Shown piece after piece: positions 5,866 through 63,498 of a stretch of DNA of 64,000 nt (position 1 is the first letter of the stretch; the number at the start of each line of letters is the position of its first letter). Under the pieces are notes generated by a model that had not been told where the DNA came from, did not search any database, and was given only the letters and a program-made list of their open reading frames with translations. Source of the stretch: an uncultured Gammaproteobacteria bacterium. Lineage in GTDB: Bacteria; Patescibacteriota; Microgenomatia; Levybacterales; UBA12049. Location of the stretch: assembly GCA_964571255.1 (NCBI GenBank), contig CAZNAA010000002.1, positions 28,746 to 92,745 on the forward strand. The letters are read 5' to 3'. The position numbers and the translations under genes were made by a program.

Positions 5866-5869
5866 ACAG

Positions 5870-6593: not shown

Positions 6594-6811
6594 AAACAAT
6601 CTAAGAAAACCATTTTAAGAAATCAAAAATATCCTAACTCGGCAATTGCGTCGCTTTCTGGAGATTTTTTCTCCAAATGGCCCCTTTCTTATTTTGTCTT
6701 TCTTTGTGCCTGTCTAACCCTTAGAAATAAGACTTTGTTTCTAGAGATTAGGCATTTTGTTATCTCCCCTATTTTTGTTTCCAATTTATTTTTTCTCTAG
6801 ATTCTTCCCTC

Positions 6812-6839
6812 TTGAATTTTTTCCAAAAATGATAATAAT
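6812..6839 (+). promoter_or_regulatory. sigma70-like promoter (TTGAAT-16 nt-AATAAT) for GC-rich unit 3
   Basis: TTGAAT lies at 6812-6817 and AATAAT at 6834-6839, followed by ACAG. It is a paralogue of the promoter at 5838. Confidence 0.45.
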
Positions 6840-6844
6840 ACAGG

Positions 6845-7359: not shown

Positions 7360-7486
7360 AAAATAATTCAAGAAAGAAAAACAATATCCAAGTAGGAAAG
7401 TGAGTTTTACTCAAGTAAACAATTGCGTTTTTTTGAGGAGAGATCCTTTTTTACTCCGTGGCACGTTTTTTTTCCTAGTCTGTGCC

Positions 7487-8191
7487 TTATCCTTTTTTGG
7501 GAACTGCTGTTACATAAATTCTCTTCCACGTCGTTCCAGGAGGCCAACAGGTCTGCAAGATGAGTTTTTCCTCTGTCGTATGAGCATCAGTTAAAAACTG
7601 AACTTCATTTGCTTCTCCAACCCGCTGCTCAACTACTCTATAGTCATACCGTCTATCTTCAAAAAAGAGAGTGATATCGTCTCCCTTTTTCAAGTCTTTC
7701 AGGAGATAAAAAATGGCATTATATCGTCCTACATTCCAAAAATTATCCGTTGAGTGAGCGAAAAGATACGTATTGCCTTTCATTCCAGGAAAGACTGTCC
7801 CCTTAGCATGCGCTACTCCTTCTGTTAGGACAGGCAGGAACTCGTCCGATTTTTCTGGATCAATATTTGGAAAGATCTTAGCACTTGCCCCTATTTTTGG
7901 GATCAAAATACTAAATTGTGTATCAGATGGGATCAATATTTGCTCTTTGCTTCCAGATAAAATTTGTCCAAAGCCAATCGATGGAGTCGTTGCGGCACTT
8001 CTCGTAGCAACGTCAATATGTTCAATATCAGCAACCGCAAAGGTTACTCCTCTGTATTTAATCACTTGGTATTGAGCTTCGTAATAGAAAGCAGGTCCAA
8101 AGGTTGCCCCTACTCCATAGAGAGCAAAGAGAAGTAAAAAGTTACCAATTGTTCTGAGGATAAGATATTTTGTAATCTCTGACTTATTCAT
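7487..8191 (-). CDS. sortase (transpeptidase)
   Basis: 234 aa with an N-terminal TM segment. The catalytic LILQTCWP (LxTC) motif is followed by the conserved Arg region. Confidence 0.8.
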   Translation of the reverse strand: MNKSEITKYLILRTIGNFLLLFALYGVGATFGPAFYYEAQYQVIKYRGVTFAVADIEHIDVATRSAATTPSIGFGQILSGSKEQILIPSDTQFSILIPKIGASAKIFPNIDPEKSDEFLPVLTEGVAHAKGTVFPGMKGNTYLFAHSTDNFWNVGRYNAIFYLLKDLKKGDDITLFFEDRRYDYRVVEQRVGEANEVQFLTDAHTTEEKLILQTCWPPGTTWKRIYVTAVPKKG

Positions 8192-22304: not shown

Positions 22305-22309
22305 GTCCT

Positions 22310-24066: not shown

Positions 24067-24100
24067 CAAGACTTTCTCACACAAAGCATACTGTCAGTAT

Positions 24101-25513: not shown

Positions 25514-25515
25514 CT

Positions 25516-45800: not shown

Positions 45801-48800
45801 TGGAGATATTACGCTCTATAACCTAGCAACGAGTGGAACTGGAACTACCACCTTTTCTGGAAGTGGAACAAATACAGTAAGTAACAATGTAACCGTCGGA
45901 GCAGGAACCACTCTTGCCATTAACTCCAGTATTTCTATCACAGGAAGTTTTGCCAATACAACAACTGGGATTATCACAACCACCAGTGGAAATCCAACAG
46001 TAACCGTTTCTGGAGCAACGATTGGCGGAGGAAGTGGAGCTATTACCTTTTATGATCTCACTAAAGCAGGAGGTGGAACCACTACGTTTTCTGGTGCTGG
46101 AACGAACACCGTAAACAACAATTTATCTATATCAAATGGTACCTTTACTCAATCAGATAGCCTTACGGTGACAAACGATATTAGCGTTGCAACAGGAGCA
46201 ACGTATAACAATAATGCAACACTTGCTGTCAATGGAGGAGACTTCACAACAACAAGTACTGGTGTCATCAATACGACCAGCGGTACCCCTACTCTCACCA
46301 TTTCAGGAACAGGGAGTTTGGGTGGAGGAAATGGAAATATTACCCTTTATAATCTGACAACTACTGGATCAGGAACAACTACTTTTTCAGGAGGCGGAAC
46401 TAACACGATAAATAATAATGTCTCAGTTGGGGCAGGAACTACTTTAAATATTAACTCTACAATTGGCATTACAGGAAATCTGACGAACACTTCAACTGGA
46501 ATAATTGGCACAACGAGTGGAACTCCAACGGTAACAGTTTCAGGAACAACGATTGGTGGAGGAAGTGGCGCTATAACTATTTATACGCTTGCCAAAGCTA
46601 CCGCATCAACTACAACTTTTTCAGGAGGCGGAACTAACACTCTTTCACAAAATCTCACAGTTTCTGCAGGGACACTCACTATCTCAAATGATTTGAGTAT
46701 TGGAAATGACGTTTCTGTTGCAACGAGTAGTACGTTAAATCTCAATGGAAACACTTCAATTGGCGGAGGAGATGCAACAACTGCTGGCACTGGGATTATT
46801 AGTACGACAAGTGGTACTCCTACTCTTTCAGTTTCAGGTACAGGAACTGTTGGAGGTGGCGGAGCTGTTAGCGCCTATAACTTAACAATTTCTGGAAGTC
46901 AAACGATCTCTTCAGCCACAACGGTTTCAAATGATTTGAACATTAATGGAACCATGTCTGGTTCTTCAACAGTAACCGTGAATGGCAATTTAGTAGGAAT
47001 TGGAGCCGTTTCTCACGGAGGAACCGTTGAGCATCGAATAGGAAGTGATAAAAACTTTGGAGCAACGAGTGGAAGTGGAACATGGGCATTTACTACGCTC
47101 AAATTTACCAACTCAAGTGGTTCAACCAAAACCATTACCACCCAAACTGGCGGAGCAGGAGGAGTGAGTGCAGCAACTGTTCTTCAAGTTGGAGAAACCG
47201 ATGATTCAGCTGGGATTAACTTAGATGCAGGGAACAAAACATGGACTCTTTCTGGAACAAGTGGAGCTCCATTAAGTATTGAGGATGGAAGTATTGCAGC
47301 AGCGACCTCAACATTTGTGTTTAGCGGAAATAACGGTGGTGGGAATACAACGATTAATGACATTACCTATTACCGGTTAACGGTAAATAACGGCTCAGAA
47401 ACGTTTGTTCTAGCAGCCTCCCCCCTTCTTGTTACCAATACGTTAACAATCAGCGCAGGCACTCTTTCTGTCAGTACAAACTCCGTAACTGTTGGCTCCT
47501 CAAGTGTATCGAATTCTGGGAGTATTTTAAATTCAGGAACCTATTCCCAATCTGCTGGAGGAACAACAACGGTGAAATCCTCTGCCGGGGGAAGCAGCAC
47601 AATTGGAGGAAGCGGAACAACTACTTTTTATAATTTAAGTATTGCTCCAGATGCTGCTTCTGCTCCAACAATTACTCTTGGATCTGCAGGAAGTCAAACA
47701 ATCACTGTTTCCAATAATCTAGGAATTGGAGATGGATCAAACTCAGTAATAGTAACAGCGAACACAAATAACCCTGCGCTTGATGTGAATGGGAATTTTA
47801 CGATTAATACTAGTGCTACTTTTACTGCTCCCCCATCAGCTAGTTTTACTATTGCTGGGAATATGACAAATGATGGAACTTTTACTCATAATAATGGAAC
47901 CGTTACTCTGGATACGACAACAACTGCTACGCTTACAGGAAGTGGCTCTACTGCTATTACGTTTTATAACTTAACTTCAACTACAGCAACCAAAACAATC
48001 CTTTTTACTAGTACAAAAACTTTTAAAACTGATGGCCTCGTTACCTTAACAGGAAGTAGTGGGAATAATATTACAGTTGATGCAACAAGCAACGGGTCCC
48101 AATGGTTAATTAACCATCAAGGAACAGAGAATATTACCTATACCTCTGTCCAAGATTCAGGCTGTGATGGAGCAAGTACTACTATTACGTTGGGAACAAC
48201 GAATACGAATAATGGCAATAATTCCTCCTGTTGGGTCTTTACGATGGATGTAACGGGAAATGTGTATACAGATGAAGGAAGTAGTGCGTATGACTGTTCC
48301 TCAGATAATTTAACCATTCATATCTCAGTCAATGGAGCAGCCAGCACAACAACTACCTGCACCTTAAATACTGGAGCCTTTAGCTTTTCAGGAGTCACTA
48401 AACCGTCAAATGGAACTCCTATTGTTCTGTATATTGATAGTGGAGAAACACCAAAAGCAACAACTGTTACTCTTGCCGATTCCAGTTTAACTGGAGTAAA
48501 AATCTATCAAAACCATGTGAACTTAACTCATGAAAATGCAGGACCTATTACCAATACCAACCTTTCAACAGCTGATAATGGAGATAGCGGAATACGATAC
48601 AACGTCAGTAGCGGAAATGTCACGTTTGATACAGATATGGAGGCTCATGTCCTTGGAAGTAAAACGTATACACCTGGAGGAAATGTGACTACACAAGGAA
48701 GCGCTGGAGATTTTCACCTTGCCTCAAGTAGTACTGCCACTCTTGGAGGAATAACAACACTTTCTGGTGACGTGCAGGTTGATACAGGAGCCACGCTTAC

Positions 48801-50604
48801 TATCAACGCTGATACAGCTGTTTCTGGAGGAGCAGTAGCAACAAGCGGGACAGGAAGTGTTACGACCAGCAGTGGAACACCTACTCTGACCATTAGTGGA
48901 ACAGGAAATATTGGGGGTGGAGGAAGTGTCACCGCTTATAATTTGACAGTATCAGGTACTCAGACACTTCAATCAAATCTGATTGCAAATAATGATATTA
49001 GTGTTTCAAACGGAGCTTCCCTTGCCCTTAACGGAAAAGATACGACAGTGACTGGTGGCGACTTTACTACGACAGGAACTGGTGCTATTACTTGTTCTGG
49101 ATGTAGTGCTGGAACAACTACTATTAACGGAGGAGCAGCAAGTGGACTGGGAGGAGGAGGAGCAGTTACTGTCTATAATCTCACTATTGGCGGAACAGTA
49201 CCTCTTCTTTCTACCCTTACTGCGCTTAATACCTTAACCGTGAATGGAACATTCTCCGGCTCTTCCAATGCAACCGTGAATGGAAGTATTGCAGGAACTG
49301 GGACAATCATTTTTTCTGGAGGAACAGTTGATCAACGAGTGGGAGCTTCTCAAAACTTTGGAACAACGAGTGGGAGTACTAACTGGACTTTTTCGACACT
49401 TATTTTCTCAAACTCCAGCGGAACGAGCAAAACTGTTACTACCCAAACTGGAGGAAGTGGAACAGTCACTGCCTCAACCCTTCTCCAAATTGGCAAAGGA
49501 GGAGACAGTGCAGCCACAGTACTTGACGCTGGAAATAGAAATTGGATTGTTCAAGGAACAAGTGGTACTCCTCTAACTCTCCCTCAAGGAAGTGTTACGG
49601 CCAACACCTCAACAGTTAGTTATACAGGAAATAATACTGGTGGAAATACCACTATTGCAACTATCACCTACTACTCCCTCCTCGTAAATAACAGTTCAGA
49701 AACCTATACCCCGTCCACCACTCTTGCTATTGATAATGGATTAACCGTTACATCAGGAACGCTTGATCTTGGCACGAATGATACAACCATTGGATCAACT
49801 GGCGTATCAAACTCAGGAGGAGTCTCTGTTCTTGGTACCCTTACGCAATCTTCCAGTGCAACCACTACTATTCGAACCTCTGCTAGCGGAGCTAGCACTG
49901 TTGGAGGAAGTGGTAGTATCACCTTTTACAACCTTTCTTTGGCTCCTGCTGCTAATAGTGGAGTAATCACACTAGGATCTGCCACCAGTCAAACGATTAC
50001 TGTTTCAGGTACACTTACTATTGGAAACGGCAGTAACTCTGTGACTGTGACTGCTAATACGAATAACCCCACCATTGATGTCAATGGCAGCCTGACAATC
50101 AATACAAGTGGAACCTTGGTTGCACCACCTTCCTCTATCCTCTCCATTGCTGCAAATATGACAAATGACGGAACCTTTACAGCCAATGGAGGAACTGTTC
50201 GAATTGACGGTTCAGGAACATCAGTTCTCAATGGCTCCTCAAGTCCTGCTATCATCTTTGCCAACTTTCTCTCAAGTACAGCAGGAAAGACTATTCAATT
50301 CACCGCATCCAAAATTTTCCGAATAACAGGCTCACTTACCATTACTGGAGCTACAGGAAATACAATCGCTATTCAATCAACAAGCGGGACACAATGGCTT
50401 ATCGATCACCAAGGGACAGAAAGCGTAACGAACGCAACCATTACCAACTCAGGCTGTGATGGAGCCAGTACAGATATCACCCTTGGGTTTAGTAATTTTA
50501 ATGGAGGAAACAATGGAGTGTGTTGGGTCTTTACTGCTGGAGGAGCGATACAGTCACGCGTGAAAGGAACAACTCGAGTAGGAGGAAATGCTCGGATCCA
50601 ATAA
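39841..50604 (+). CDS. giant (3587 aa) secreted surface protein with beta-helix-like repeats
   Basis: Has a signal/TM N-terminus (LLAGLLALSLLLGPLIPFF). Repeated TNNGTLTLTG...FDNTGG...DEATDDSTFTCGNTPGGTFRIDKT units are present. About seven ~90-aa GTG...VYNL...GTQT repeats follow. A ~130-aa Cys-containing module (QWLI[ND]HQGTE...SGCDG...CW.F) occurs three times. Confidence 0.85.
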   Translation: MKYLNYLSLLRHILRTKKVLLAGLLALSLLLGPLIPFFSFHNSSKQETPKYFASELTMRSKKTLFTPVEKPTFKIGIGKPVTQDGKVLEKISGTNVFISEVHAQETSLPELQIKASRTIRETDIVQMVANRTAPDEIEIKVADAVSFRPGKYRMSITSGNRNIEQDFTWGVLAVNTNKSVYSPGETAKIGMAVLDDIGRTKCMTGAYAEFNKGKVWLTITDPLGKKTEHSSENGLVIGSPECEEHSVTNEADFQTTYKTTTPGIYQIDLIGENQNGKKSIADYFEVKSDQSVIVERISLPTRIFPASDYSASISVTTKGPFKGQIIETTPASFIITCDGCQVLGENSLNDASEPADRKATHTIVWDVDWKTGGSHTLSYTINPPNVSPEFFLLGPLTLSQGKNILFKEVRQWQIASDALITWNGNGASVNWSVAGNWSTGAAPTTAANVVLDGVASPNGNANSTINNATVGAVTDITINGYTGTVTQGAAIATSGTSGITVTSGTLTGATQAITLTDGSLTVNGGVFTTTTGAVSIQLNLTFSSGTLTNNASGINFTDNTSADDSTLSCSSTLSGTWRINKTSGGDFALGSGCTVSMSENVTSSVGLLTNDGTLTITGASTVLNIVDNNIDNNSSLTVDSSGARVTVERNFDNTGGTLTNNGTIDFPDSTNADDSTLTCGNTPGGTFRINKAQGSDFTLSSSCTITATENVTSSLGRLTNNGTLTLDNGTFVFGQTDTTLSVDNNSSLTLDTDAIITLQRNFDSTGGSITNNGNINWISDEAGATDSPDLTCNSSLGGSGSYNLNFAAAADFTLSSSCTVTMSESLAGVAPMGLLTNNGVLTLAGSGASFDFNSTSPTLLLDNNNTLSLGSGATITIQRNFDNTGGSFSNSGTVIFDADEATDDSTFTCGNTPGGTFRIDKTLASDFTLSSGCTISASENVTSSLEVLTNNGNLTLTGTSSFVFTTTSTNLQIDNNGTMTIDSSVTVSLHRNFDNTGGTLTNSGTVVFNSDEATDDSTFTCGNTPGGTFRIDKTTGGTTFTLSSGCTASFTESATVAMEQITNNGTMTLTGGSSSWPLTTTSVTDQVVNTGTLNITGGAALSLHRSFNDTGTVSNSGGSISFLSDEATVDDTTLTCGGSSDFGDVTINKTSSGSTFTISSNCVFNDFIYTSSSAEFSNPGSARTLSVTGNFTMDDIQNLGGANLTVEFSSTGTQTINKSSTGLFQSKFSVNKTAGGNSVGLATALTVTTETCNIVEGTFETNGFTFTCAGGFTVQDGGNLQMHGSETPTSPTLNSGSTVTYEGNGDGVADTRTMKAYVYHHLTVNSSVGTADTFQPPNAFTGANDINGNLTITDGTFDVISGTNYGVDVVGSFSIATDGIFLAQAGTLKIGDDFTNNGTFTAGTGTVELNTATTATLNGSGSPAVTFNNFTVTTAAKTVQFTASKTFRINGLLTITGTAGNEVVINSTSGTQWLINHQGTENVTYANVTNSGCDGTSTTITIDATSINNGNNGTCWDFPILNITVSGNIYSDEGSSAYDCSANNITVYTSVNGAANDTPGTCTLNTGAFSITATKPTAAAQPIVIFIDSGESIKATTVTLTADATSNITGLKLYVDHLVLTHEDSGPMTNAKLATGDNADAGIRYSVASSNLTVESGIELFVYNSKTFTPGGTVTTQGSLGDFQLGTSATATLGTATNTISNDILIGTSATLNVNTDTIVAGGDITATGTLNTTSGTPTITMRGTGSISGAGSKTVYTLLIGDGTTATTTLSGTLTANNDVTVGTGSTFNQNASLNISGGDFTTTTTGIVNTTSGTGTVTITGTGNVGAGSGGSFTVYNLAANGTQTLISDIVTTNNISIATGGSLALASKNVTVSGGTVSTAGTGAITCSACSAGTVTISGTGNIGGGGTVTVYNLQINGTQTLASALTVSNDAVVGTGGILDLGSQNMTVTGGDFTNTTTGIIRCNSCSAGTLTMPATGNLGSGSGDITLYNLATSGTGTTTFSGSGTNTVSNNVTVGAGTTLAINSSISITGSFANTTTGIITTTSGNPTVTVSGATIGGGSGAITFYDLTKAGGGTTTFSGAGTNTVNNNLSISNGTFTQSDSLTVTNDISVATGATYNNNATLAVNGGDFTTTSTGVINTTSGTPTLTISGTGSLGGGNGNITLYNLTTTGSGTTTFSGGGTNTINNNVSVGAGTTLNINSTIGITGNLTNTSTGIIGTTSGTPTVTVSGTTIGGGSGAITIYTLAKATASTTTFSGGGTNTLSQNLTVSAGTLTISNDLSIGNDVSVATSSTLNLNGNTSIGGGDATTAGTGIISTTSGTPTLSVSGTGTVGGGGAVSAYNLTISGSQTISSATTVSNDLNINGTMSGSSTVTVNGNLVGIGAVSHGGTVEHRIGSDKNFGATSGSGTWAFTTLKFTNSSGSTKTITTQTGGAGGVSAATVLQVGETDDSAGINLDAGNKTWTLSGTSGAPLSIEDGSIAAATSTFVFSGNNGGGNTTINDITYYRLTVNNGSETFVLAASPLLVTNTLTISAGTLSVSTNSVTVGSSSVSNSGSILNSGTYSQSAGGTTTVKSSAGGSSTIGGSGTTTFYNLSIAPDAASAPTITLGSAGSQTITVSNNLGIGDGSNSVIVTANTNNPALDVNGNFTINTSATFTAPPSASFTIAGNMTNDGTFTHNNGTVTLDTTTTATLTGSGSTAITFYNLTSTTATKTILFTSTKTFKTDGLVTLTGSSGNNITVDATSNGSQWLINHQGTENITYTSVQDSGCDGASTTITLGTTNTNNGNNSSCWVFTMDVTGNVYTDEGSSAYDCSSDNLTIHISVNGAASTTTTCTLNTGAFSFSGVTKPSNGTPIVLYIDSGETPKATTVTLADSSLTGVKIYQNHVNLTHENAGPITNTNLSTADNGDSGIRYNVSSGNVTFDTDMEAHVLGSKTYTPGGNVTTQGSAGDFHLASSSTATLGGITTLSGDVQVDTGATLTINADTAVSGGAVATSGTGSVTTSSGTPTLTISGTGNIGGGGSVTAYNLTVSGTQTLQSNLIANNDISVSNGASLALNGKDTTVTGGDFTTTGTGAITCSGCSAGTTTINGGAASGLGGGGAVTVYNLTIGGTVPLLSTLTALNTLTVNGTFSGSSNATVNGSIAGTGTIIFSGGTVDQRVGASQNFGTTSGSTNWTFSTLIFSNSSGTSKTVTTQTGGSGTVTASTLLQIGKGGDSAATVLDAGNRNWIVQGTSGTPLTLPQGSVTANTSTVSYTGNNTGGNTTIATITYYSLLVNNSSETYTPSTTLAIDNGLTVTSGTLDLGTNDTTIGSTGVSNSGGVSVLGTLTQSSSATTTIRTSASGASTVGGSGSITFYNLSLAPAANSGVITLGSATSQTITVSGTLTIGNGSNSVTVTANTNNPTIDVNGSLTINTSGTLVAPPSSILSIAANMTNDGTFTANGGTVRIDGSGTSVLNGSSSPAIIFANFLSSTAGKTIQFTASKIFRITGSLTITGATGNTIAIQSTSGTQWLIDHQGTESVTNATITNSGCDGASTDITLGFSNFNGGNNGVCWVFTAGGAIQSRVKGTTRVGGNARIQ
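44900..46900 (+). repeat. tandem ~270-nt coding repeats inside giant protein 2
   Basis: Peptide units of the form ...TSGTPT(V/L)T(V/I)SGTG..GGG....YNL...GT.T.. recur about seven times. Confidence 0.7.
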
Positions 50605-54920: not shown

Positions 54921-56228
54921 CTATTTTCCAAGAGTCTCGAGAAACTCATCATTTGATTCCGTTTGGCTCAATCTCTCAATTAAAATACTCGTTCTTTCAT
55001 CAGGTCCAAGCATATCAATCATTCGTCTCATGGTAACCATTTTCTTATACGTTGGGTCATCAAGCAGCAACTCTTCTTGTCTAGTTCCTGATCTTTCGAC
55101 ATTAATCGCAGGATAAATTCGGCGCTCTGCCAGTCTGCGATCTAAATGCAACTCCATATTTCCCGTTCCCTTAAACTCTTCATAGACCAAGTCATCAAGT
55201 CGGGATCCCGTATCAATCAGAGCTGTTCCAATAATGGTGAGAGAACCTCCGTCTTTGCAGTTTCGAGCTGCTCCAAAAATTCTTTTAGCTGGCCAGAGAG
55301 CAGCTGGATCAAATCCTCCGGAAAGGGTTCGTCCACTAGGCGCAACGGAAAGATTATAGGCACGAGCAAGTCTCGTGATTGAATCTAAAAGAACAATCAC
55401 GTCTTTGCCTGTTTCAACAAGTCGTTTCGCTCGCTCCAGAGCAATTTCAGCAATTCGGGTTTGATCCTCTGGTGGTTCATCAAAGTTTGAGGCAACTACT
55501 TCTCCGTGAACTGATGAGGAAATATCTGTTACTTCCTCAGGACGCTCTCCAACTAAAACGGCCATTAAGAAAGAATCAGGAAAGTTTTTGGCAATTCCTG
55601 CGGCCAAGTCTTTGAGAATGGTTGTCTTTCCTGCTTTTGGAGGAGAAACGATCATTCCACGCTGTCCAAATCCAATAGGAGCTACTAAATCAATAATCCG
55701 AGTTGAAAGAGGCAGTTTGCCTGTTGAAAGAGTAATTTGTTTATTAGGATAAATTGGCGTCAGATCCTCAAACCAAGGTCTATTATATGACTCCTCCCCT
55801 GTTTGTCCATTTACTTTCTCGACCTTTAATAAGCCGTAATATCTTTCATTGTCTTTGGGAGGACGAGCAACTCCTTCAACCAAATCTCCTCCACGCAGCG
55901 CAAACCTTCTAATTTGAGATTGAGAGATATAAATATCACGATTGGAGGGAACAAATTTAGGACGCAAAAACCCATGTCCTTCAGGCTGTAAGTCTAAATA
56001 TCCTTTTACTTCCTCAGTTGGACCTTGTTGAACTGCAGGATATGAGGAAGAATAACCTCCACCATTACCATTTTGACCTCCTTGATCATCATAGGATTGG
56101 TTTGAAGAAGATTGGCTAGATGAGTTTTCCTGAAAATCATCATTTGGAGACACACGACGAGGACGGAGTGTTTTACCCACAAAATCAGCTGCAGAACTTG
56201 AGGAAACTGGTTTTCTTGTATATGGCAT
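54921..56228 (-). CDS. rho: transcription termination factor Rho
   Basis: 435 aa. Has an RNA-binding OB fold and RecA-type ATPase motifs (GQRGMIVSPPKAGKTT; LLDSITRLARAYN). A Q/S/G/N-rich low-complexity insertion lies near the N-terminus. Confidence 0.9.
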   Translation of the reverse strand: MPYTRKPVSSSSAADFVGKTLRPRRVSPNDDFQENSSSQSSSNQSYDDQGGQNGNGGGYSSSYPAVQQGPTEEVKGYLDLQPEGHGFLRPKFVPSNRDIYISQSQIRRFALRGGDLVEGVARPPKDNERYYGLLKVEKVNGQTGEESYNRPWFEDLTPIYPNKQITLSTGKLPLSTRIIDLVAPIGFGQRGMIVSPPKAGKTTILKDLAAGIAKNFPDSFLMAVLVGERPEEVTDISSSVHGEVVASNFDEPPEDQTRIAEIALERAKRLVETGKDVIVLLDSITRLARAYNLSVAPSGRTLSGGFDPAALWPAKRIFGAARNCKDGGSLTIIGTALIDTGSRLDDLVYEEFKGTGNMELHLDRRLAERRIYPAINVERSGTRQEELLLDDPTYKKMVTMRRMIDMLGPDERTSILIERLSQTESNDEFLETLGK

Positions 56229-56366
56229 AGGAAATTTAACTTAGAAGGGAATTTAGTACCATTTTATCTGTAAACAGAAGCGGTAATATGTGTATTATAT
56301 CGTATATGTAAGACTTGTCAAGATCCTTCCCTTGACAAACCAGGTGTCTCGATCAATAATCCATGC

Positions 56367-57050
56367 ATGAGAAAATGGATTATTCTAGCACTTCTTTTTG
56401 TTTTAGCTGCACTCATTCCCTCTTTCGCTTTTGCTGATACCGCCTGTCAACCTAGATACGGGGGAGGCGTAACGTGTGATAAGAATACAACAGTTGTGGA
56501 TAAAAAGGTAAAAAATCCCCAAACCAACCTCTATGTAAATACCCTTGATACCAAAGGCCCACTCTTTACACCTACTGACACGGTCATGTTTCGAATAAGT
56601 GTTACCAATATCGGAACGACTGCTCTAACCAATATCCCCTTGGTAGATAACTTTCCTAAGTATCTAACTCACGTAAAGGGCGGAACATGGGATGCTAGTA
56701 AGCGACAAGTGAAGTTTATGATCACCAGACTCGCAGCCAATGAAACTAAGACGTTTGAAATAGAAGCACTTTTATCAGATAAAGAAACTATTTCAGAAAC
56801 AGCCAGTCTGTTTTGTCTCTCCAATACTGCCTCCACGACTCTTTTGGAACAAACCTTTCAAGACAGTGCTCAGTTTTGTATAGAAAAAGAAGGAGAGGAA
56901 ACAATTCCTTCTCAATCTAAAGGTGGACTTCCCGTCTTTACTCCTCAAAAGGGAACTCCTTCTCACACTCCAAAAACCGGAGCAGAAGTAACACTGCTTC
57001 TTCCCATTCTTGGAGGACTAGGGTATTTTCTGAAAAGAAGAACTAACTAA
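56367..57050 (+). CDS. DUF11-like surface protein with C-terminal sorting signal (TPKTGAE + TM + KRRTN)
   Basis: 227 aa with a signal peptide. The DUF11-type repeat domain is (SVTNIGTTALTNIPLVDNFPKYL...W...ANETKTFEIEA). It ends HTPKTGAEVTLLLPILGGLGYFLKRRTN. Confidence 0.6.
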   Translation: MRKWIILALLFVLAALIPSFAFADTACQPRYGGGVTCDKNTTVVDKKVKNPQTNLYVNTLDTKGPLFTPTDTVMFRISVTNIGTTALTNIPLVDNFPKYLTHVKGGTWDASKRQVKFMITRLAANETKTFEIEALLSDKETISETASLFCLSNTASTTLLEQTFQDSAQFCIEKEGEETIPSQSKGGLPVFTPQKGTPSHTPKTGAEVTLLLPILGGLGYFLKRRTN

Positions 57051-59199
57051 CCTTTTTTCCAAATCGCTCACGAGAAACTCTCATGACTTTTTCCTTATTT
57101 TGAGATCTGGAATTAGGAAGTGGCAAAGTGTAGCAGAAGAACGGACTACTCGTTGTTCCATCAATACAAAGTTTTAACATTGCTTGATAGTTTCCTAGAG
57201 CCAAGATATCCTCTTCTTTAAATCTCTCCTTAAACTCTTTGGCCAAATACGTGGCATCATTTGCTCCAACCAGAAAAGTCATCAGAGTCCCTGCATTTCC
57301 AAAAATAGCTGATCTGATATCCTCTTGGACTTGATCAATGTATTGATTTGCTAAAATCAAGCTTAAACGAAACTTTCGAGCTTCAGAGAGAATTTTGATA
57401 AAAGAGGTTGTGGCAAAGTTTTGGAACTCATCAACGTACAAGTAAAAGTCCCGTCTCTCCTCCTCCGGAATAGAAACTCGATTCATTGCGGCCAGTTGAA
57501 TTTTGGTAATAATCATAGCACCAAGTAGTGCTGCATTATCTTCTCCCAAATGACCTTGGGACAAGTTTAAAATAAGAATTTTTCCTTCATTCATGATTTT
57601 TTCTAAATCAATGGTCGATTTGGGATGTCCTATGATATTTCTAATTGTTTTACTTGAGGTAAATTGGCCTACTTTATTAAGAATAGGCGCAACAGCCTCA
57701 GTCATCATCTTTGGATCCATGGCATTAAACTCTTTTTCCCAAAAGTTAATAAGCACTGGATCTGTTAAGTTATCAATCACTTTTTTTCGAAAAGCTGCAT
57801 TGGTCAAAACGTCAGGAACCATAAGAAGAGTTGCATCAGGCATTTCAATAATCGAAACAATCGTGTTTCTTAAAATATACTCAAGCCGAGGCCCCCAGCT
57901 TGTTCCATAGAGTTTTTTGAAAATAGCTACAATTCCTGAAGCAACGAGTTCTTTTTGCGCATCATTCGTTACTTCAAGTGGATTAATCGCAAATTGATAC
58001 TCCGTATCGGCTGGATTCATATAGGCAATATCATTCACCCTATATGAAGGGACAAATTCTAAAATATGCTCACATAAGTCACCGTGTGGATCAATGACAC
58101 AAAACCCACGTCTTTTTCTCAAATCATCAATCGCCATATTGGCAATAAAAGTTGATTTACCCGTACCTGACTTTCCAATGACATACAAGTGACGCCTTCT
58201 ATCCACTTTCTTAATGCCAAAGTTTGTTAACTTATTCTTATATTCAGTCTTTGCAAAAAAGTTAATGTCTTGTAACTCCTCTTCTGTTTTTCCTTCAGAA
58301 ACTGGAAGTGTTTCTGGTGCATCGGAAAGAATTACTCTATGCCAGGCCAAGTTATGAATAGTAGATAGTTTGATATTGGGAAAATGGAAGATACTCGCTA
58401 TTTCCCAGACGTTTAAGATTTGTCCTAAGGGAATAAACTTTCTAGAGCGAGTCACAATAGATTGAATAAGTTGGTCTTTTTGCCAAAATAGAGGTTTTTT
58501 TGTTATCAAGCTATTTGCTGAAGGATGAGCAAAGGTGGCAAAACTTTGCGTGATTTCTGAGAGGTATTTTGAGCCTCTATGACTATCATCACTACTCACG
58601 AGAACTCTAATCCCTGTATTAAACCCAACAACAGATACCTTTTCGGTAATGAGAGCTGCGTAAGGGTTAGGAGAAGTTGTGCCATCACTACTCGTTACCT
58701 TTCCATTAGCAACACCTCTCCCCTTTGACTGCCAGGATGAAGAAACAGGCACCAAAAGATACTGCACCACTGCACTATCCCCCGGCTGACACTTTGAGAG
58801 AATACTCAATACACTGGAGAGTGGATCAACATCTTTGAATTCCCTGACTGTTTTTAATGGATAAATAGAAGGATGAGACAACGTCAAACTCGAAGCAAGC
58901 TTATGAGAAGCTTGTAACATTTCCGGCATATAGTCCTTAACTGCTGAAATGAGTGCTTTGGGGTATTGAGAAAGAAGCTGACTCTCAACAAAAATACGAG
59001 AGGATTCAGGAATGGTGAGATAGAAATGAACGATCTGGTCAATTACGGCAATTTCTAAAGTAATAGGAATTCCCTTTTTCCAAAAATACCTTACTCGAGT
59101 TTTAAGCGTTGTTAAGGTGGTTAAAAACTGCACCATAGCCTCAACTGTTTCTTCTCCAGTCCGGCTTGTTTTGATTTCTAGAACAACTTTCTCACTCAT
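57043..59199 (-). CDS. P-loop ATPase of the FtsK/HerA/TraG-VirD4 (DUF87-like) clade
   Basis: 718 aa. Walker A (VIGKSGTGKSTFIANM) and Walker B (FYLYVDEFQNF) motifs, plus a downstream ARKFRLSLILANQ segment typical of T4SS coupling-protein-like ATPases. Confidence 0.6.
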   Translation of the reverse strand: MSEKVVLEIKTSRTGEETVEAMVQFLTTLTTLKTRVRYFWKKGIPITLEIAVIDQIVHFYLTIPESSRIFVESQLLSQYPKALISAVKDYMPEMLQASHKLASSLTLSHPSIYPLKTVREFKDVDPLSSVLSILSKCQPGDSAVVQYLLVPVSSSWQSKGRGVANGKVTSSDGTTSPNPYAALITEKVSVVGFNTGIRVLVSSDDSHRGSKYLSEITQSFATFAHPSANSLITKKPLFWQKDQLIQSIVTRSRKFIPLGQILNVWEIASIFHFPNIKLSTIHNLAWHRVILSDAPETLPVSEGKTEEELQDINFFAKTEYKNKLTNFGIKKVDRRRHLYVIGKSGTGKSTFIANMAIDDLRKRRGFCVIDPHGDLCEHILEFVPSYRVNDIAYMNPADTEYQFAINPLEVTNDAQKELVASGIVAIFKKLYGTSWGPRLEYILRNTIVSIIEMPDATLLMVPDVLTNAAFRKKVIDNLTDPVLINFWEKEFNAMDPKMMTEAVAPILNKVGQFTSSKTIRNIIGHPKSTIDLEKIMNEGKILILNLSQGHLGEDNAALLGAMIITKIQLAAMNRVSIPEEERRDFYLYVDEFQNFATTSFIKILSEARKFRLSLILANQYIDQVQEDIRSAIFGNAGTLMTFLVGANDATYLAKEFKERFKEEDILALGNYQAMLKLCIDGTTSSPFFCYTLPLPNSRSQNKEKVMRVSRERFGKKVS

Positions 59200-59237
59200 A
59201 TCATTATTTTACCTCTTTTTTCTCTCCCACACAAACT

Positions 59238-59265
59238 TGCACATTCACAAATAGTAGCCTATAAT
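59238..59265 (+). promoter_or_regulatory. sigma70-like promoter (TTGCAC-16 nt-TATAAT-ACA), third copy of the cassette seen at 5838 and 6812
   Basis: TTGCAC lies at 59238-59243 and TATAAT at 59260-59265. A leader box CTTAACAAGG (59323-59332) matches CTTTAACAAGG of the other two copies. Confidence 0.5.
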
Positions 59266-59453
59266 ACAACTAGCTTTTCTCCCATTGTATGCAATGGAGG
59301 AGAAAAAGCACTCTTTTAGCACCTTAACAAGGTATCCACAACATCATCCAGCCTCACATTCTGTACCCTATTCCTTTTAGTATATAGAATGTGTGGCGCA
59401 TGGATGATGCCACAAAGTAACGATTTTACCAATACGCACAGAAGGAGTATCCC

Positions 59454-60506
59454 ATGTCAAAACGGCGACGGATCACAATCGGCCTCATTGGGTTGTTAGT
59501 TTTTAGCCTGCTCTTCCCTCTTAGGGTTGGAGCAGATGACATCCCTCCACGAGAGCTAGCACCCACTATGCATAAAACGCGGTGCGTGCCAAATCAAACA
59601 GTTGGAGATGGAATTCCTACCATTCTTGACGGAGGGGATGGGCACTACGTAGTCCACCCTGAGCTGGCCCCCATCCTGAAACGCGAAGGGGGATTTTGCG
59701 AGATCAAGGCTCTAACCAGCGAATACTCGGAGATCCGCATCACCAGTGCCTCTCCCATCATGGCCATGACTGAGAAAGTACGCCATGAGAAAGTGAAAGA
59801 TATCACTCTGACCGGTAGGACAATAGCGATCTGGATTGACAAGGGCGCAGATGCGTCCAAGATCCTGATCACCGTTCAGTCTGTATTCCTGGACCTGGAT
59901 CCACGAATCGGGGGCGAAAAGTATAATACCCCCGGCTCAACCTACTTCCCGCAAACTGGCCAGAGGATTTCAGAAAAGTTCCTCAAGGCCTGGGAAACTA
60001 ACGGGGGGCTTACCCAGTTCGGCTTCCCTACCTCTCCGGAGGGATTGGAGAGGCTCGAAGACGGCAAGCTCTACAAAATACAGTACTTCGAGCGCGCCCG
60101 ATTCGAGCACCATCCCGAAAACGCGGGGACACGATACGAAGTGATGCTCGGTCAATTCGGCCGACGAATTCATGGGAAGATAGATCCTAACGCCGAGCGG
60201 GCGAAGGATCATACCTGCAGCTATTTCCAGCTTACGTTGGATATAGGCCACAATCTCTGTGGCTCCTTCAACGAGTACTGGGTAACCCATGGCGGGCTTG
60301 CCCAATTCGGGTTCCCGATCACCGAGGAATTCGAAGAAACGCTGGAGGATGGTAAAACCTATCGGGTTCAGTACTTCGAGCGCGCCCGATTCGAGCACCA
60401 TCCAGAGAACCCAGCTCCCTATAACATTCTCCTCGGCCAATTCGGCCGAAGGATTCTAGCTGACTTAGCAAACCAACGCCTAACAAGCGCTGGTAACAAT
60501 AAGTAG
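59454..60506 (+). CDS. GC-rich secreted tandem-repeat protein (350 aa), probably horizontally acquired
   Basis: Strong SD (AGAAGGAG, then 7 nt, then ATG). Has a signal peptide. Two ~100-aa repeats of the form ...GGL.QFGFP...EDGK.Y..QYFERARFEHHPEN...LGQFGRRI. GC is far above the genome background. Confidence 0.65.
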   Translation: MSKRRRITIGLIGLLVFSLLFPLRVGADDIPPRELAPTMHKTRCVPNQTVGDGIPTILDGGDGHYVVHPELAPILKREGGFCEIKALTSEYSEIRITSASPIMAMTEKVRHEKVKDITLTGRTIAIWIDKGADASKILITVQSVFLDLDPRIGGEKYNTPGSTYFPQTGQRISEKFLKAWETNGGLTQFGFPTSPEGLERLEDGKLYKIQYFERARFEHHPENAGTRYEVMLGQFGRRIHGKIDPNAERAKDHTCSYFQLTLDIGHNLCGSFNEYWVTHGGLAQFGFPITEEFEETLEDGKTYRVQYFERARFEHHPENPAPYNILLGQFGRRILADLANQRLTSAGNNK

Positions 60507-60555
60507 ATTCACTCTGCGCAGTATTGGGATCAGCTCAAAAGAATGGAGCTGGACC

Positions 60556-60573
60556 GGAGAGGAAAACCTCTCC
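60556..60573 (+). terminator. stem-loop GGAGAGG-AAAA-CCTCTCC downstream of the GC-rich gene
   Basis: Perfect 7-bp stem seen in the sequence. The following sequence is only weakly T-rich. Confidence 0.3.
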
Positions 60574-61686
60574 TGCGCATCCCTTTGTGGGAAAAGATCA
60601 ATCAATTCTTCTTCTTCTCAAAGTAGCAATAGCGCTTATCTGAGAAAATGCAGACAGGATTGACCTTTAGGATACCTTGTAAACATCCGTTTTCTTCCTC
60701 AGAACTTGACAATCCCAACAAAAATAGTACAATACTATAAGTCTTGATGTTTTTATGCTCTTTTGGGCGTAAAATCTATTAGACACGCACATTTACAATA
60801 TACAGGGTCTAATAAAACCCACGTACTGGAGATAAGCTTCTTAGTATCATAAGAGTCTTTTCTCCGGTATGTGGACAGCTGATTGACAGCTTTTCCACTC
60901 TGGATACTGAGGCCACAAGCCTCAAGGAGCCATCAGTGGCACGAAAACCCAAGACACCGGTCCCAGTAATACGACGGGAGACCTTTCCAGTATGGAAGGA
61001 AAACTTAGTAAAAATAGGAGTAATAATCCTACTTCTCTCAATTCCAACCCTAATCTTCCTCTCCTACTTGGCAAGGTAGAACTTCCTCTTCCCCTTCGGG
61101 GACCTGGTCCAGGTGCACAACGAAGTGCAGCTGGGAGGGTTCAAATCCCTCAAGAGGAACCGCTGCAAAGCGCATGTGCGCATGGCAGAAAACTGGGAGG
61201 GACAAATGACGCCATACGGTCGGTTCGAGGAGCTGATAAAACGTCTTTTTGGGCCACTCTTGGCCCGAATGAACCACGCAACAGAGTGGTTCGTCAACCA
61301 CTTTGGCTTCTTCAGCGAAAGGAGGGATGTCGACAATGAGTAGGATGCCAGGAGGGTGTGTTGTCCTCCTTATTAGTGCCTTACTCCTTCTAGGAGCGAT
61401 CCTGGAGGGAGTGGGAATCATTGTCCCGTGAGAAACAGATCGGGTGAGCTCCGGTAAAGCAAGCTCAATCAGCCTTTAGAGGAAAGAAATGAACAAAAAA
61501 AAACGGTATCAATTGCGATACCTTAGAGTTTTCCGTTTTCTTCTCTTCCTGGCACACATTTGTGCCCCCTGTATATTCAACCAACAACAATACAATAAAG
61601 ATTCACCTCTAAATGGCTCATAGTCCTTATTTCCCTAACTCCTTGACATATCCTATAATCTTTTGCTATACTCTGTTTGAGGTTAT

Positions 61687-62373
61687 ATGACAACTACATT
61701 TCTCTCTGCATCTACTCTCGTAATTGGAGCTTTCCTGCTCTCTTCTTCTGTGGTTTCAGCAGCAGGATCTGTTTATGGTGGAGGCTATGGATACGGAAAT
61801 AATCCTCAACAAACAGGTAAAAAAATCTCCATTGATAAAAAAGTAAAAAATCCAACGAACGAAAAGTATGTTGACCATTTGAGTGTCAACGATCCAAAAC
61901 ACAGTGCAGATCAAGAAATTTTCTTCCAGATTACCGTCAAAAACACTGGAGGAGTTGAGTTAAAAGATGTGATTGTGAAAGATGTTGTACCTCAATACCT
62001 CACTATTACGAGTGAAGCAACGTATGATAAGAATACGAAAACATACTTCTTCAAAATCCCCTCTTTAGGAATAAATGAAACCAAAGTACTTGATATTAAA
62101 GGAAAAATTGCTAGTGCGAATCAACTCCCCGTTGATGATGGAATCTTTTGTTTAATTAATCAAGCAGTTGTCACAGTTGATGACATGAAAGTCCAAGATA
62201 ACTCTCAATTCTGTGTCCAGCGCCAAGTTGTTGGAAAAACAAAAGGCGGACTTCCTGTCTTTGCTGCAGCAACTGTGAAGAAAACACCTGATACTGGAGC
62301 TGAATCTCTTGTCCTTCTTACTCTTCCTGCACTCAGTGCAGCTGGAGTATTCCTCAGACGAAAAAGTGCGTAA
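61687..62373 (+). CDS. DUF11-like surface protein with C-terminal sorting signal (TPDTGAE + TM + RRKSA); paralogue of 56367
   Basis: 228 aa with a signal peptide. The QITVKNTGGVELKDVIVKDVVPQYL...NETKVLDIKG DUF11-type domain is present. It ends KTPDTGAESLVLLTLPALSAAGVFLRRKSA. Confidence 0.6.
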   Translation: MTTTFLSASTLVIGAFLLSSSVVSAAGSVYGGGYGYGNNPQQTGKKISIDKKVKNPTNEKYVDHLSVNDPKHSADQEIFFQITVKNTGGVELKDVIVKDVVPQYLTITSEATYDKNTKTYFFKIPSLGINETKVLDIKGKIASANQLPVDDGIFCLINQAVVTVDDMKVQDNSQFCVQRQVVGKTKGGLPVFAAATVKKTPDTGAESLVLLTLPALSAAGVFLRRKSA

Positions 62374-62376
62374 GTG

Positions 62377-63498
62377 TTACTTCTCTTTTTGTAAATAGGT
62401 ATACATCTGTTTACTGATTTCTTTCCAACTAAAATTCTTTTGAATATGCATATAGAAGTTTTTGGAGAGTCTTTCTCTCTCTTTTTTATCCTTCCCTAAG
62501 CTCACCAGAGCCTTTTCAAGCCCCACTTTGTCCTTCATTGGTAAAAGGATCCCTGTTTCTCCATTGATAATCATTTCCCTTGTTCCTCCGGTATCTGTTG
62601 CAATCACAGCAAGCTTCATGGCTCCGGCTTCAAGAATAATATTAGGAAACCCTTCATGGTGATATGAAGGGTGAACAAAGATGTCAGTGTTTTTTAAAAG
62701 GCTAATCACGTCCTCTTTGCTTTGTCCCCCTTTAATCAAGATATGGGTACGCTTTTCTTTTTGAACTCTTTCCTTTAAAGGCTCTACTAACTCTCCAGGA
62801 CCGGCAAAGACAAAATCAAATTCAGGATGCAATGTGGCAATATCAAAAAGAAACTCAACTCCTTTTGAAGGAATCATTCGCCCAATATAGGTAACAGTGA
62901 CTTTTTTCCCTTTCTTTTTCTCTTGGGGAATAAACTTACTTGTATCTACTCCTCCATACATAACAATACTATTAATACCTAAGGAATCCTTTAAAAAGGC
63001 CTGAGTTGCTTTATTGGTGGCAAAAACAGTGGTATACCACTTCATACAGAACCGAACGAGAGTAAGATCAAGAAGTTTTGAAATCGTACTCACAAACGCA
63101 CTGGCATGGACTGGGTGAAAGGCACAGTGATCTGTTAGGACAATCGGAGTTTTGGTAAGACGGGCAAAAAGAGGCATATACCAGGCTGTGTCAAAAAAAC
63201 GAGTAGAAACATGAATAAGATCATACGCATTTCTTTTCTTCCAAAGGAATAAGAAAAGTTCAATGGGATGCGGGAGGGCAAATTGTCCAGGAAGAAGAGA
63301 AAGACAAGGGATCCGATACACACTCATTCCCCGATATACTTCTCTTTGTACAGTCTTATCCGTGTTATAGCACAACACGTCAACAGAAAGCTCTGGATGA
63401 TCCATTAAAAGAGATGCATACAGATCTTCCATATACTGCTGACTCCCCCCAATGTGAGGAGCAAAAAAAGGAGTAACGATTAAAATACGCTGTTTCAT
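62377..63498 (-). CDS. GT4-family (GT-B) glycosyltransferase
   Basis: 373 aa. The C-terminal EGFPNIILEAGAMKLAVIATDTGGTREMI (E-x7-E region) and overall layout are typical of group-1 glycosyltransferases. Confidence 0.8.
   Translation of the reverse strand: MKQRILIVTPFFAPHIGGSQQYMEDLYASLLMDHPELSVDVLCYNTDKTVQREVYRGMSVYRIPCLSLLPGQFALPHPIELFLFLWKKRNAYDLIHVSTRFFDTAWYMPLFARLTKTPIVLTDHCAFHPVHASAFVSTISKLLDLTLVRFCMKWYTTVFATNKATQAFLKDSLGINSIVMYGGVDTSKFIPQEKKKGKKVTVTYIGRMIPSKGVEFLFDIATLHPEFDFVFAGPGELVEPLKERVQKEKRTHILIKGGQSKEDVISLLKNTDIFVHPSYHHEGFPNIILEAGAMKLAVIATDTGGTREMIINGETGILLPMKDKVGLEKALVSLGKDKKERERLSKNFYMHIQKNFSWKEISKQMYTYLQKEK

Follow-up and report, generated by a model that had tools for sequence, protein, structure and literature searches.

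The stretch of DNA analysed here, 64,000 nucleotides of contig CAZNAA010000002.1 (the window), encodes two small secreted paralogues, DUF11a and DUF11b, together with a sortase. Both paralogues end with a tail that resembles a cell-wall sorting signal, in which the motif is TPxTG in place of the canonical LPxTG. Because the motif is conserved family-wide, it is more than a chance resemblance. Thr at the first position of the motif (P4) is strongly supported, at the family level, as the native and selected form of the signal. Judged from the alignments, TPxTG belongs to the whole family and not just to the two genes of the window, and it is probably the recognition sequence of this lineage's unusual sortase. 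The small surface-protein family is previously undescribed. The general signal type is already known; what appears to be new is a natural sorting signal with Thr at P4 that is tied to an unclassified sortase clade of the candidate phyla radiation (CPR).

Two secreted proteins with TPxTG tails

DUF11a (56367..57050, + strand) and DUF11b (61687..62373, + strand) encode secreted proteins of 227 and 228 amino acids (aa), which are 36% identical over 185 aa. The open reading frames (ORFs) and their translations are supported for DUF11a by a conserved slot between the genes for Rho and an ATPase, and for DUF11b by invariant alignment columns and an AlphaFold2 (AF2) model. Both proteins match PF01345 (Pfam DUF11, since renamed CLIPPER), at 39.6 and 43.8 bits against a threshold of 24.6, and both pass the cutoff of TIGR01451 (24.4 and 28.1 bits; cutoff 24). 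The first-pass annotation, which was made from the DNA letters, had called them DUF11-like, and this assignment is borne out. Each protein begins with a predicted Sec-type signal peptide, residues 1-23 in DUF11a (56367 to 56435, + strand) and approximately residues 1-25 in DUF11b (+ strand). As read from the translations, the boundaries are MRKWIILALLFVLAALIPSFAFA followed by D and MTTTFLSASTLVIGAFLLSSSVVSA followed by A, respectively.

The C-terminus of DUF11a reads HTPKTGAE-VTLLLPILGGLGYFL-KRRTN and that of DUF11b reads KTPDTGAE-SLVLLTLPALSAAGVFL-RRKSA. In DUF11a, the sorting signal (56967..57047, + strand) consists of TPKTGAE (56967-56987), the hydrophobic segment VTLLLPILGGLGYFL (56988-57032) and the basic tail KRRTN (57033-57047). 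In DUF11b, the signal (62284..62370, + strand) consists of TPDTGAE (62284-62304), a hydrophobic segment (62305-62355) and the basic tail RRKSA (62356-62370). Thus, in both tails 15-17 uncharged residues are followed by KRRTN or RRKSA at the extreme C-terminus. The tripartite architecture and the Thr at the Leu position, both described in the first-pass annotation, are read directly in the two translations. Upstream of the signals, a linker motif is present as SKGGLPV in DUF11a (56916..56936, + strand, residues 184-190), identified from an alignment of 28 sequences, and as TKGGLPV in DUF11b (62239..62259, + strand, residues 185-191), identified from the same alignment and from a survey of 150 representatives. 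At the N-terminus, DUF11a possesses a Cys loop (C27-QPRYGGGVT-C37), and DUF11b has a GYGYG N-terminus in its place, which is a subclade feature.

Promoter-like elements precede both genes: TTGACA-17-AATAAT at 56332-56360 before DUF11a and TTGACA-18-TATACT at 61643-61672 before DUF11b. The element of DUF11a stops 6 nt ahead of the ATG (56332-56369), which could make the DUF11a mRNA leaderless.

The window was scanned in all six frames for xPx[TSA][GANS] followed by an uncharged stretch and a basic tail. DUF11a and DUF11b were the sole real genes obtained; two short antisense ORFs within giant genes also matched and are artefacts. A motif-free scan of the window, for a signal peptide combined with a C-terminal transmembrane (TM) segment and a basic tail, gave no further sortase-like candidate. 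Elsewhere in the window, the cell-wall genes are those for MreB, M23/LysM and PEGA proteins.

Conservation of the signal in the protein family

A scan of one genome per species, made with the family alignment, gave 28 loci. The named lineages are almost all Candidatus Levybacteria/Levyibacteriota; one locus is from Roizmanbacteria and several are from 'Patescibacteria group' entries. In the 28-sequence alignment, P201, T203 and G204 (DUF11b numbering) are invariant, and T200 and E206, the latter two residues after the Gly, are conserved in at least 90%. Proteins and genome loci together gave 56 distinct tails, in which the P4 residue is T in 48, S in 4, A in 2 and I in 2.

For the signal alone, a profile of 31 columns was compared with 1.84 billion representative proteins and gave 326 matches at E<=0.001. 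The following counts are from the best 150 of these 326 matches, taken as representatives at 50% identity. P4 is T in 127, A in 8, S in 6, I in 3, N in 2 and V in 2, and is never Leu. P3 is Pro in all 150, P2 is variable, P1 is T in 149 and S in one, and P1' is Gly in all 150. After the Gly, P2' is P in 138 and A in 10, and P3' is E in 147 and Q in 3. Both DUF11a and DUF11b possess the minority Ala at P2'. The information content is 3.4-4.3 bits within the motif versus approximately 1.2-2.0 bits at the linker positions just upstream of it. NCBIfam holds models for the variant signals NPXTG, LPxTATN and GVDTG, and none for TPxTG.

Family architectures and the CLIPPER domain

None of the best 150 signal matches exceeds 297 aa, and two architectures, plus fragments, account for all of them. 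The long form (approximately 104 of 150) has a signal peptide, a C-x-P-[IV]-[YF]-G-G-G-x-C loop, a CLIPPER domain, a linker and the signal. The 'mini' form (approximately 26 of 150; 95-160 aa) has a Pro/Thr-rich linker instead of the CLIPPER domain. The remaining 20 or so are gene fragments. In most members, T-K-G-G-[LQF]-x-[VI]-[FY]-P is found approximately 12 residues ahead of the signal; KGG was found in 102 of the 150 representatives, and the 28-sequence alignment shows K-G-G-L-P without exception. The 150 matches all belong to one superfamily, defined by the Cys loop and TKGG, with or without CLIPPER. A word-indexed search with a profile of the C-terminal module added no architecture; its matches were just 11 short fragments.

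The AF2 model of DUF11b shows an N-terminal helix and a disordered linker, then an all-beta sandwich with pLDDT above 90 over approximately residues 50-180. K51 in the first strand, D99 (in V-K-D-x-x-P) and N158 in a late strand are invariant in the 28-sequence alignment, and the predicted strands are confident. A Lys/Asp/Asn isopeptide triad has been described for CLIPPER domains (10.1101/2025.04.25.650565), and K51, D99 and N158 of DUF11b are probably the equivalent, making them a candidate isopeptide triad; C155 and C176 are a candidate disulfide. The family sequence profile did not reach the solved CLIPPER entry 9IFR in the PDB, even at E<=10, and Foldseek with the DUF11b model gave just generic Ig-like matches, for example, CARDB and TRAP-beta. 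In a rough neighbour-joining tree, DUF11b clusters with the relatives P0002-P0007, and not as the sister of DUF11a.

The candidate cognate sortase

The candidate cognate sortase (7487..8191, - strand) is a protein of 234 aa with a predicted N-terminal TM helix and the catalytic residues H146, C215 and R224. It matches PF04203 at 67 bits (cutoff 26.6) and TIGR01076 at 41.3 bits (cutoff 39.35), so the sortase with the LILQTC active site named in the first-pass annotation is genuine. H146 (in LFAHS), C215 (in LILQTC; LQTCWPPGT) and R224 are invariant in 24 orthologues. At E<=1e-5, 2,710 homologues were found. The sortase is approximately 60% identical across Levybacteria and Roizmanbacteria and is far more conserved than its putative substrates.

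All NCBIfam class scores are far under their cutoffs: SrtD, the best, 45.6 (cutoff 140); class D, 43 (165); class C, 37.2 (160); class E, 25.3 (160); class F, 20.9 (166); and class GN, 25.3 (158). The sortase profile reached PDB sortases of classes A, C, D and E at only 20-27 bits. Foldseek with the AF2 model of the sortase found solved sortases at E values from 1e-11 to 1e-9, with pilus-type class C marginally first. As for class B, no model was present in the NCBIfam list of this sortase and no structure was present among its top 50 Foldseek matches. From these comparisons, we treat the enzyme as a separate, Microgenomates-wide clade outside classes A-F.

The surroundings of the gene are of housekeeping type (NDK, PEGA, MreB and WecG). 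The gene order common to the window and related genomes is LeuRS, ComEA, ComEC, ArgRS, M16 peptidase, NDK, sortase, PEGA, MreB and WecG. From this common order with the family genomes, the source is taken to be a Microgenomates (CPR) bacterium. Near the sortase orthologue of one related locus (L034), genes for DsbA and VKOR are present, which fits the conserved Cys pairs of the family and oxidative folding. Sortase is near-ubiquitous in Microgenomates according to Méheust et al. (PMC6744442).

Proposed route to the cell wall and alternative readings

On the evidence of these features, DUF11a and DUF11b are fairly likely to be small wall-displayed proteins of a Microgenomates (Levybacteria-like) bacterium, and sortase cleavage between Thr and Gly is, with about the same moderate confidence, the best reading of their tails. 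We infer that the sortase of the window is paired with the DUF11 substrates. A similar pairing is present on contig CAZCYO010000004.1 of another genome, where a sortase orthologue and a family member with TPPTGPE are approximately 51 kb apart (49 kb in the window). The cell-wall genes of the window also favour this reading, as does LPXTG_anchor as the nearest curated model for the tails, with no match to PEP-CTERM. Each protein would be exported by the Sec system through its signal peptide and would fold into a single CLIPPER/DUF11 Ig-like domain. Given the invariant residues and the Pfam membership, this domain is probably stabilised by an isopeptide bond between Lys51 and Asn158, with Asp99 as the catalytic residue, and by disulfides, which would form by oxidative folding. 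The C-terminal hydrophobic segment and the basic tail, both visible in the sequence, would retain the protein in the membrane. The membrane-anchored sortase (H146/C215/R224) would then cut T-P-x-T-G-[P/A]-E at its Thr-Gly bond and transfer the protein to a peptidoglycan precursor.

Several observations weigh against this reading. The tails score under the cutoff of the LPXTG_anchor model TIGR01167 (15.9 bits): the two tails of the window score 12.1 and 12.6 bits, and the tails overall score 12-14.6. Among the other NCBIfam tail models, NPXTG reached 13.6 bits, and one relative's tail scores higher for MYXO-CTERM, at 17.4 bits versus a cutoff of 20. The sortase gene is approximately 48-49 kb from the two substrate genes, and no adjacent substrate was found in the three neighbourhoods of sortase orthologues that were scanned (L033-L035). 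It should be mentioned that the signal profile was made from Thr-rich tails, which biases the P4 counts mildly, by a few bits at most. An LPxTGPE tail with the same helix would be expected to score well with that profile, and none is present among the best 150 matches. Because those matches all come from one superfamily, TPxTGPE could instead be a family-specific juxtamembrane feature. Of the proposal in the first-pass annotation, the native status of TPxTG is strongly supported for the family, and its use by the sortase across the lineage is only a possibility.

In addition, other Levybacteria genes bear different sortase-like tails. In approximately 0.5 Mb of related DNA, the only ones found were LPPTGG (L014, 9275-10222) and FPPTGG (L018, 14922-15842). 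Both belong to secreted proteins of approximately 310 aa, with long Pro/Thr linkers followed by a TM segment and a basic tail, and both genes are downstream of the ATPase gene. Because they are GC-rich (GC 0.58 in loci of GC 0.43-0.44), these genes look acquired; they probably were, and they may keep the signal of the donor. The first-pass annotation had held that canonical LPxTG in other substrates of the genome, with TPxTG confined to the two proteins, would refute TPxTG as the native signal. The genes found speak against it only weakly, being in other genomes and non-native in appearance. A GC-rich gene of 448-449 aa is located downstream of each, adjacent in L014 and one ORF further in L018.

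These same points bear on the other ways in which the tails can be read. The C-terminal helix might be a permanent membrane anchor, with TPxTGPE and the Pro-rich TKGGLPV[FY]PxP linker as an uncleaved juxtamembrane stalk. The confinement of the signal to one superfamily, the sub-threshold LPXTG_anchor scores and the lack of an adjacent sortase gene all count in its favour. However, the invariant residues are precisely the P, T and G that sortases require, and the flanking linker is less conserved. Moreover, the hydrophobic segment is short (15-17 residues), Gly/Pro-rich and followed by an RRK tail, which is typical of sorting signals and not of stable anchors. We consider a permanent anchor unlikely. 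Less probable still is a non-sortase system, of the exosortase/PEP-CTERM, rhombosortase or MYXO-CTERM (CPBP protease) type. The ending GPE followed by [AM]LxLxGLxPxGxxGxxLRRK does resemble PEP-CTERM and MYXO-CTERM tails, and the single MYXO-CTERM score given above is higher than the LPXTG_anchor score of any tail. However, the PEP-CTERM model TIGR02595 had no match at E<=10 among seven isolated tails, the third residue of PEP is M, A, S or T and not Pro, and no exosortase-like protein was found among the window ORFs scanned with Pfam. P-x-T-G is invariant, although such systems do not require it. To our knowledge, exosortase, rhombosortase and MYXO-CTERM-type systems have not been reported in CPR.

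A further alternative keeps the sortase and changes its product: the enzyme might polymerise the proteins head-to-tail into a pilus-like fibre, with the TKGG Lys acting as nucleophile, either in place of wall anchoring or ahead of it. K186 is invariant in the 28-sequence alignment, with K51 as the sole other invariant Lys, and the 'mini' members consist of just the Cys loop, the Pro/Thr linker, TKGG and the signal. Pilins and adhesin stalks typically contain the CnaA-like isopeptide fold to which CLIPPER belongs (10.1101/2025.04.25.650565), and pilus-specific class C sortases are the top Foldseek neighbours of the sortase model by a narrow margin. However, KGG was not detected in 48 of the 150 representatives, and some members lack it outright. 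Neither a YPKN pilin motif nor a dedicated adjacent sortase is present, only one sortase was seen, and the gaps between classes in the Foldseek and HMM scores are small. Fibre formation is improbable on balance, somewhat more so than the permanent anchor. Cleavage and wall anchoring by the sortase is the reading that we carry forward.

Comparison with known systems

As in the Staphylococcus aureus SrtA/LPXTG system (TIGR01167, TIGR01076), the family has a signal peptide, a pentapeptide in which Pro, Thr and Gly are invariant, and a basic tail behind a hydrophobic segment. An acidic residue is found shortly past the Gly, and a membrane-anchored Cys transpeptidase with a His-Cys-Arg triad is encoded in the same genome. 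Unlike in that system, P4 is never Leu and is mostly Thr, with S, A, I, V, N or Q as the alternatives; P2' is nearly always Pro and P3' is Glu. The family tails are under the TIGR01167 cutoff, the sortase is outside the class A-F models and the host is a CPR bacterium.

The closest experimental precedent for a non-Leu P4 is Clostridium difficile SrtB with (S/P)PxTG: this enzyme cleaves SPKTG, PPKTG, SPSTG and SPQTG between T and G (PMC4155245). Both cases have a small polar or otherwise non-Leu P4 and one sortase with a handful of substrates, and SPxTG is a minority form here (6 of 150). In contrast, the C. difficile enzyme is of class B, to which our sortase shows no affinity, and the context there is TGD versus TGPE here.

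The domain itself is comparable to that of the CLIPPER fibrillar adhesins (10.1101/2025.04.25.650565; PDB 9IFR), with which it shares PF01345, a predicted Ig-like beta-sandwich, the invariant Lys, Asp (D-x-x-P) and Asn, and a late-strand Cys pair. However, in our family a single domain is present in a protein of approximately 230 aa versus tandem repeats in a giant adhesin, a long insertion follows the first strand, some members lack CLIPPER, and the isopeptide bond is a prediction.

PEP-CTERM and MYXO-CTERM tails resemble ours in the PE followed by a Gly/Leu-rich helix and an RRK tail, and in one sub-threshold MYXO-CTERM score. They differ in that the PEP triplet is missing from our tails, the window ORFs scanned gave no exosortase-type enzyme, and the invariant residues are those of a sortase signal. 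Unlike Gram-positive sortase-assembled pilins, our proteins have no YPKN motif, and the sortase gene is 48 kb away in a housekeeping context. Kinship with the Pam pili of CPR was considered and ruled out: the pilins in question are two-domain proteins that lack a sortase signal and assemble through donor-strand exchange.

Gene neighbourhood of the two paralogues

The Rho gene (54921..56228, - strand), identified from family matches and synteny, is divergent from DUF11a and anchors the conserved order M23/LysM, Rho, DUF11. Of the other loci, 23 gave a Rho gene, and in each of them the divergent Rho-DUF11 adjacency is present. Rho has a perfect (12/12) promoter-like site at 56321-56294 (- strand), back-to-back with that of DUF11a. 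On its other side, DUF11a is convergent, with an 8-bp overlap, with the gene for a soluble TrwB/VirD4/HerA-like P-loop ATPase (57043..59199, - strand) of 718 aa, with a Walker A motif (GKSGTGKS) at residue 342. The ATPase matches Pfam TrwB_AAD_bind at 37.9 bits (cutoff 20.5) and DUF87 at 29.2 bits, in agreement with the earlier VirD4/HerA-like assignment, and has an N-terminal DUF8128 according to the annotation of its orthologue in the related locus L001. It has no TM segment and is far under the cutoff of all equivalog models, and no VirB4 was seen within the window. The ATPase gene follows the DUF11 gene tail-to-tail in 13 Levybacteria loci. Identity of its product to the orthologue in L001 is 97%, and to the other Levybacteria orthologues 58-65%. 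Because the Rho-DUF11-ATPase order is conserved, DUF11a is in the ancestral slot.

DUF11b is convergent with a gene for a GT4 glycosyltransferase (62377..63498, - strand; Pfam Glycos_transf_1, 113 bits), and this DUF11-GT4 adjacency recurs in L001, L007, L029, L036 and L037. In L036 and L037, at 51-55% identity, the context of DUF11b is kept: a gene resembling p350 (a GC-rich gene described below), an ORF-poor spacer, DUF11b and the convergent GT4 gene. In L001, at 88% identity, the complete arrangement of the window is present. By its conserved context, DUF11b is an old paralogue and not a recent copy.

The first-pass annotation had suggested that a duplicated surface-protein gene was split by the insertion of foreign DNA at 57.0-61.6 kb, including the ATPase gene. 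The two paralogues do bracket the ATPase gene and a GC-rich gene, and p350 and part of the spacer are GC-rich, as are genes downstream of the ATPase in other genomes. However, the GC-rich part covers only 59.35-61.45 kb, and the ATPase gene (GC 0.38, GC at third codon positions (GC3) 0.33) is like its neighbours in composition. The proposed synteny comparison also went against an insertion, given the conserved position of the ATPase gene in the 13 loci, the divergence of its orthologues and the same order in L001. The paralogues are only 36% identical and are not sisters in the rough tree, and DUF11b has its own context, conserved in relatives. A recent split of this kind is very improbable. 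The ATPase, as far as synteny and composition can tell, is a native ancestral neighbour and an orphan protein that resembles type IV coupling proteins, not inserted DNA. The site downstream of it behaves, in the genomes compared, as a variable spot and not as a gene-splitting insertion.

DUF11a and the ATPase gene are convergent members of a block, M23-Rho-DUF11-ATPase, that is syntenic as a whole, and their adjacency alone is therefore weak evidence of functional coupling. In Patescibacteria, 5,713 VirD4-type homologues have been counted, most of them far from virB4, so that orphan homologues of coupling proteins are common there, and exaptation was raised as a possibility; the same survey of type IV secretion systems (T4SSs) found no PrgB-like adhesins (Quiñonero-Coronel et al., PMC12102498). 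LPXTG-anchored adhesins are typical of Gram-positive T4SSs (PMC12857230). In L038 (9262-14594), a 'mini' family member occupies the Rho-adjacent slot, directly beside a PF18895 T4SS_pilin (VirB2-like) gene, and in L024 (2147-2536) a homologous VirB2-like pilin gene is located between the Rho and DUF11 genes. The likeness to PrgB-type LPXTG adhesins encoded next to T4SS genes (PMC12857230) consists of a sortase-type surface protein beside a VirD4/TrwB-like ATPase, with the VirB2-like pilin gene adjacent in L024 and L038. On the other hand, there is no sequence relation to PrgB, the genes here are convergent and so not co-transcribed, neither VirB4 nor other T4SS core genes were seen, and the ATPase has no coupling-protein TM anchor. 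The T4SS link of the DUF11 family is suggestive only.

The variable spot of L038 holds a GC-rich island that encodes a full VirD4-type coupling protein (T4SS-DNA_transf, TrwB and TraG-D_C), which is unrelated to the ATPase of the window at the phmmer level.

The GC-rich p350 gene and the spacer

The gene p350 (59454..60506, + strand), recognised from its ORF, composition and an internal repeat (D13), encodes a secreted protein of 350 aa. The product contains two copies of a repeat of the form GGLxQFGFP...LEDGKxYxVQYFERARFEHHPEN...LGQFGRR (QYFERARFEHHPEN between GGLxQFGFP and LGQFGRR) and had no Pfam or NCBIfam family match. Its GC is 0.53 and its GC3 is 0.60, versus a GC3 of approximately 0.30 for the neighbours. 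Homologues are found upstream of DUF11b-type genes in L001, L036 and L037 (GC 0.53-0.58 versus 0.41-0.45), with 40% identity in L036 and L037. The p350 protein is 73% identical to the L001 copy where the ATPase is 97% identical. Thus, p350 evolves fast. The compositionally odd part of the locus, 59.35-61.45 kb, consists of the p350 ORF and part of the ORF-poor spacer, and only these look foreign by composition.

The spacer (60507..61686, + strand) is located upstream of DUF11b and includes a near-consensus promoter-like element, TTGACA-16-TACAAT, at 60706-60733, a GC-rich stretch at 60840-61460 and a 38-nt hairpin element at 61430-61467 (TGAGCT...AGCTCA). The folding z-score of the GC-rich stretch is -6.0 on the + strand versus -1.8 on the - strand. 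Between the spacer and that of L001, nucleotide identity is 74-80%, and tblastx showed no frame preference. The hairpin element is common to L001 and L037, with one compensatory change. In metagenome contigs, an exact 30-mer of the element was not found, and a looser 22-mer was found in two unrelated contigs, one of them phage-like and the other with an unrelated GC-rich coding region. The region 60706-61545 (+ strand) may be a structured RNA of approximately 800 nt of unknown kind.

A second GC-rich (0.46-0.47), ORF-poor stretch of 2.5 kb, at 4930-7486, is located between the sortase gene and the PEGA-side genes. At the orthologous site, L034 has nothing, and L033 has a different ORF-poor stretch of approximately 3 kb. 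Rfam scans of the GC-rich ORF-poor stretches at 59.2-61.7 kb and 4.9-7.5 kb gave nothing credible.

Other genes in the window and in related genomes

Large proteins (927-1,303 aa) encoded a few kb downstream of the DUF11 gene in L020 (16037-19948), L022 (13568-17296) and L030 (12802-15585) have a different C-terminal signature, [LW]PQYL[EQ] followed by a hydrophobic segment and a basic tail. This tail may serve Levybacteria as a further signal, for sorting or anchoring. In L002 (10175-10930; same genome, approximately 10 kb past the DUF11b gene), a 251-aa protein with an S-layer homology (SLH) domain is encoded. Thus, the organism appears to use non-covalent wall anchoring too.

In the window, 21669-26517 contains five consecutive genes on the + strand (211, 249, 336, 470 and 333 aa) with no confident family. 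The products of 336 aa and 333 aa show weak similarity to WxLIP_PGBD (E 0.007 and 0.003, respectively), and the former has a C-terminal TM helix. This is reminiscent of the Pam pilus operon of CPR, with its membrane-anchored chaperones (bioRxiv 10.64898/2026.03.03.709456). Two giant ORFs, 28638-39770 (3,710 aa) and 39841-50604 (3,587 aa), contain diverged internal repeats, and neither has a sorting signal. The ORF of 3,710 aa has phage-integrase SAM-like domains at its start (74.7 bits) and a Peptidase_G2 autoproteolytic motif near its C-terminus.

Implications

Literature searches on TPxTG and on sortase sorting signals in Patescibacteria found no paper. Microgenomates is a very large uncultivated clade, and no prior description of its sortase substrates and recognition motif was found in the literature. 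The present analysis supplies a candidate signal (T-P-x-T-G-P-E), a substrate family and an enzyme clade.

A broader scheme can be imagined, although we hold it to be doubtful. Microgenomates would possess a new sortase class with TPxTGPE as its native signal and with one or two dedicated, tiny substrates per genome, made of the Cys loop and a stalk, with or without CLIPPER, and fixed beside Rho and the orphan VirD4-like ATPase, sometimes with VirB2-like pilins. These substrates would be either the missing wall-anchored adhesin of the Patescibacteria T4SS or the subunits of a fibre that the sortase polymerises through the TKGG lysine, and the enzyme would be a naturally orthogonal ligation tool.

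If our preferred reading, sortase cleavage of the TPxTG tail, is true, it would add one more natural sortase specificity and an orthogonal pair of enzyme and tag for protein ligation. It would also identify a conserved surface protein of CPR bacteria, a possible handle for labelling or capturing these organisms. Furthermore, the fixed site of its gene beside an orphan T4SS-type ATPase gene would be a lead on cell-cell contact functions in these episymbionts.

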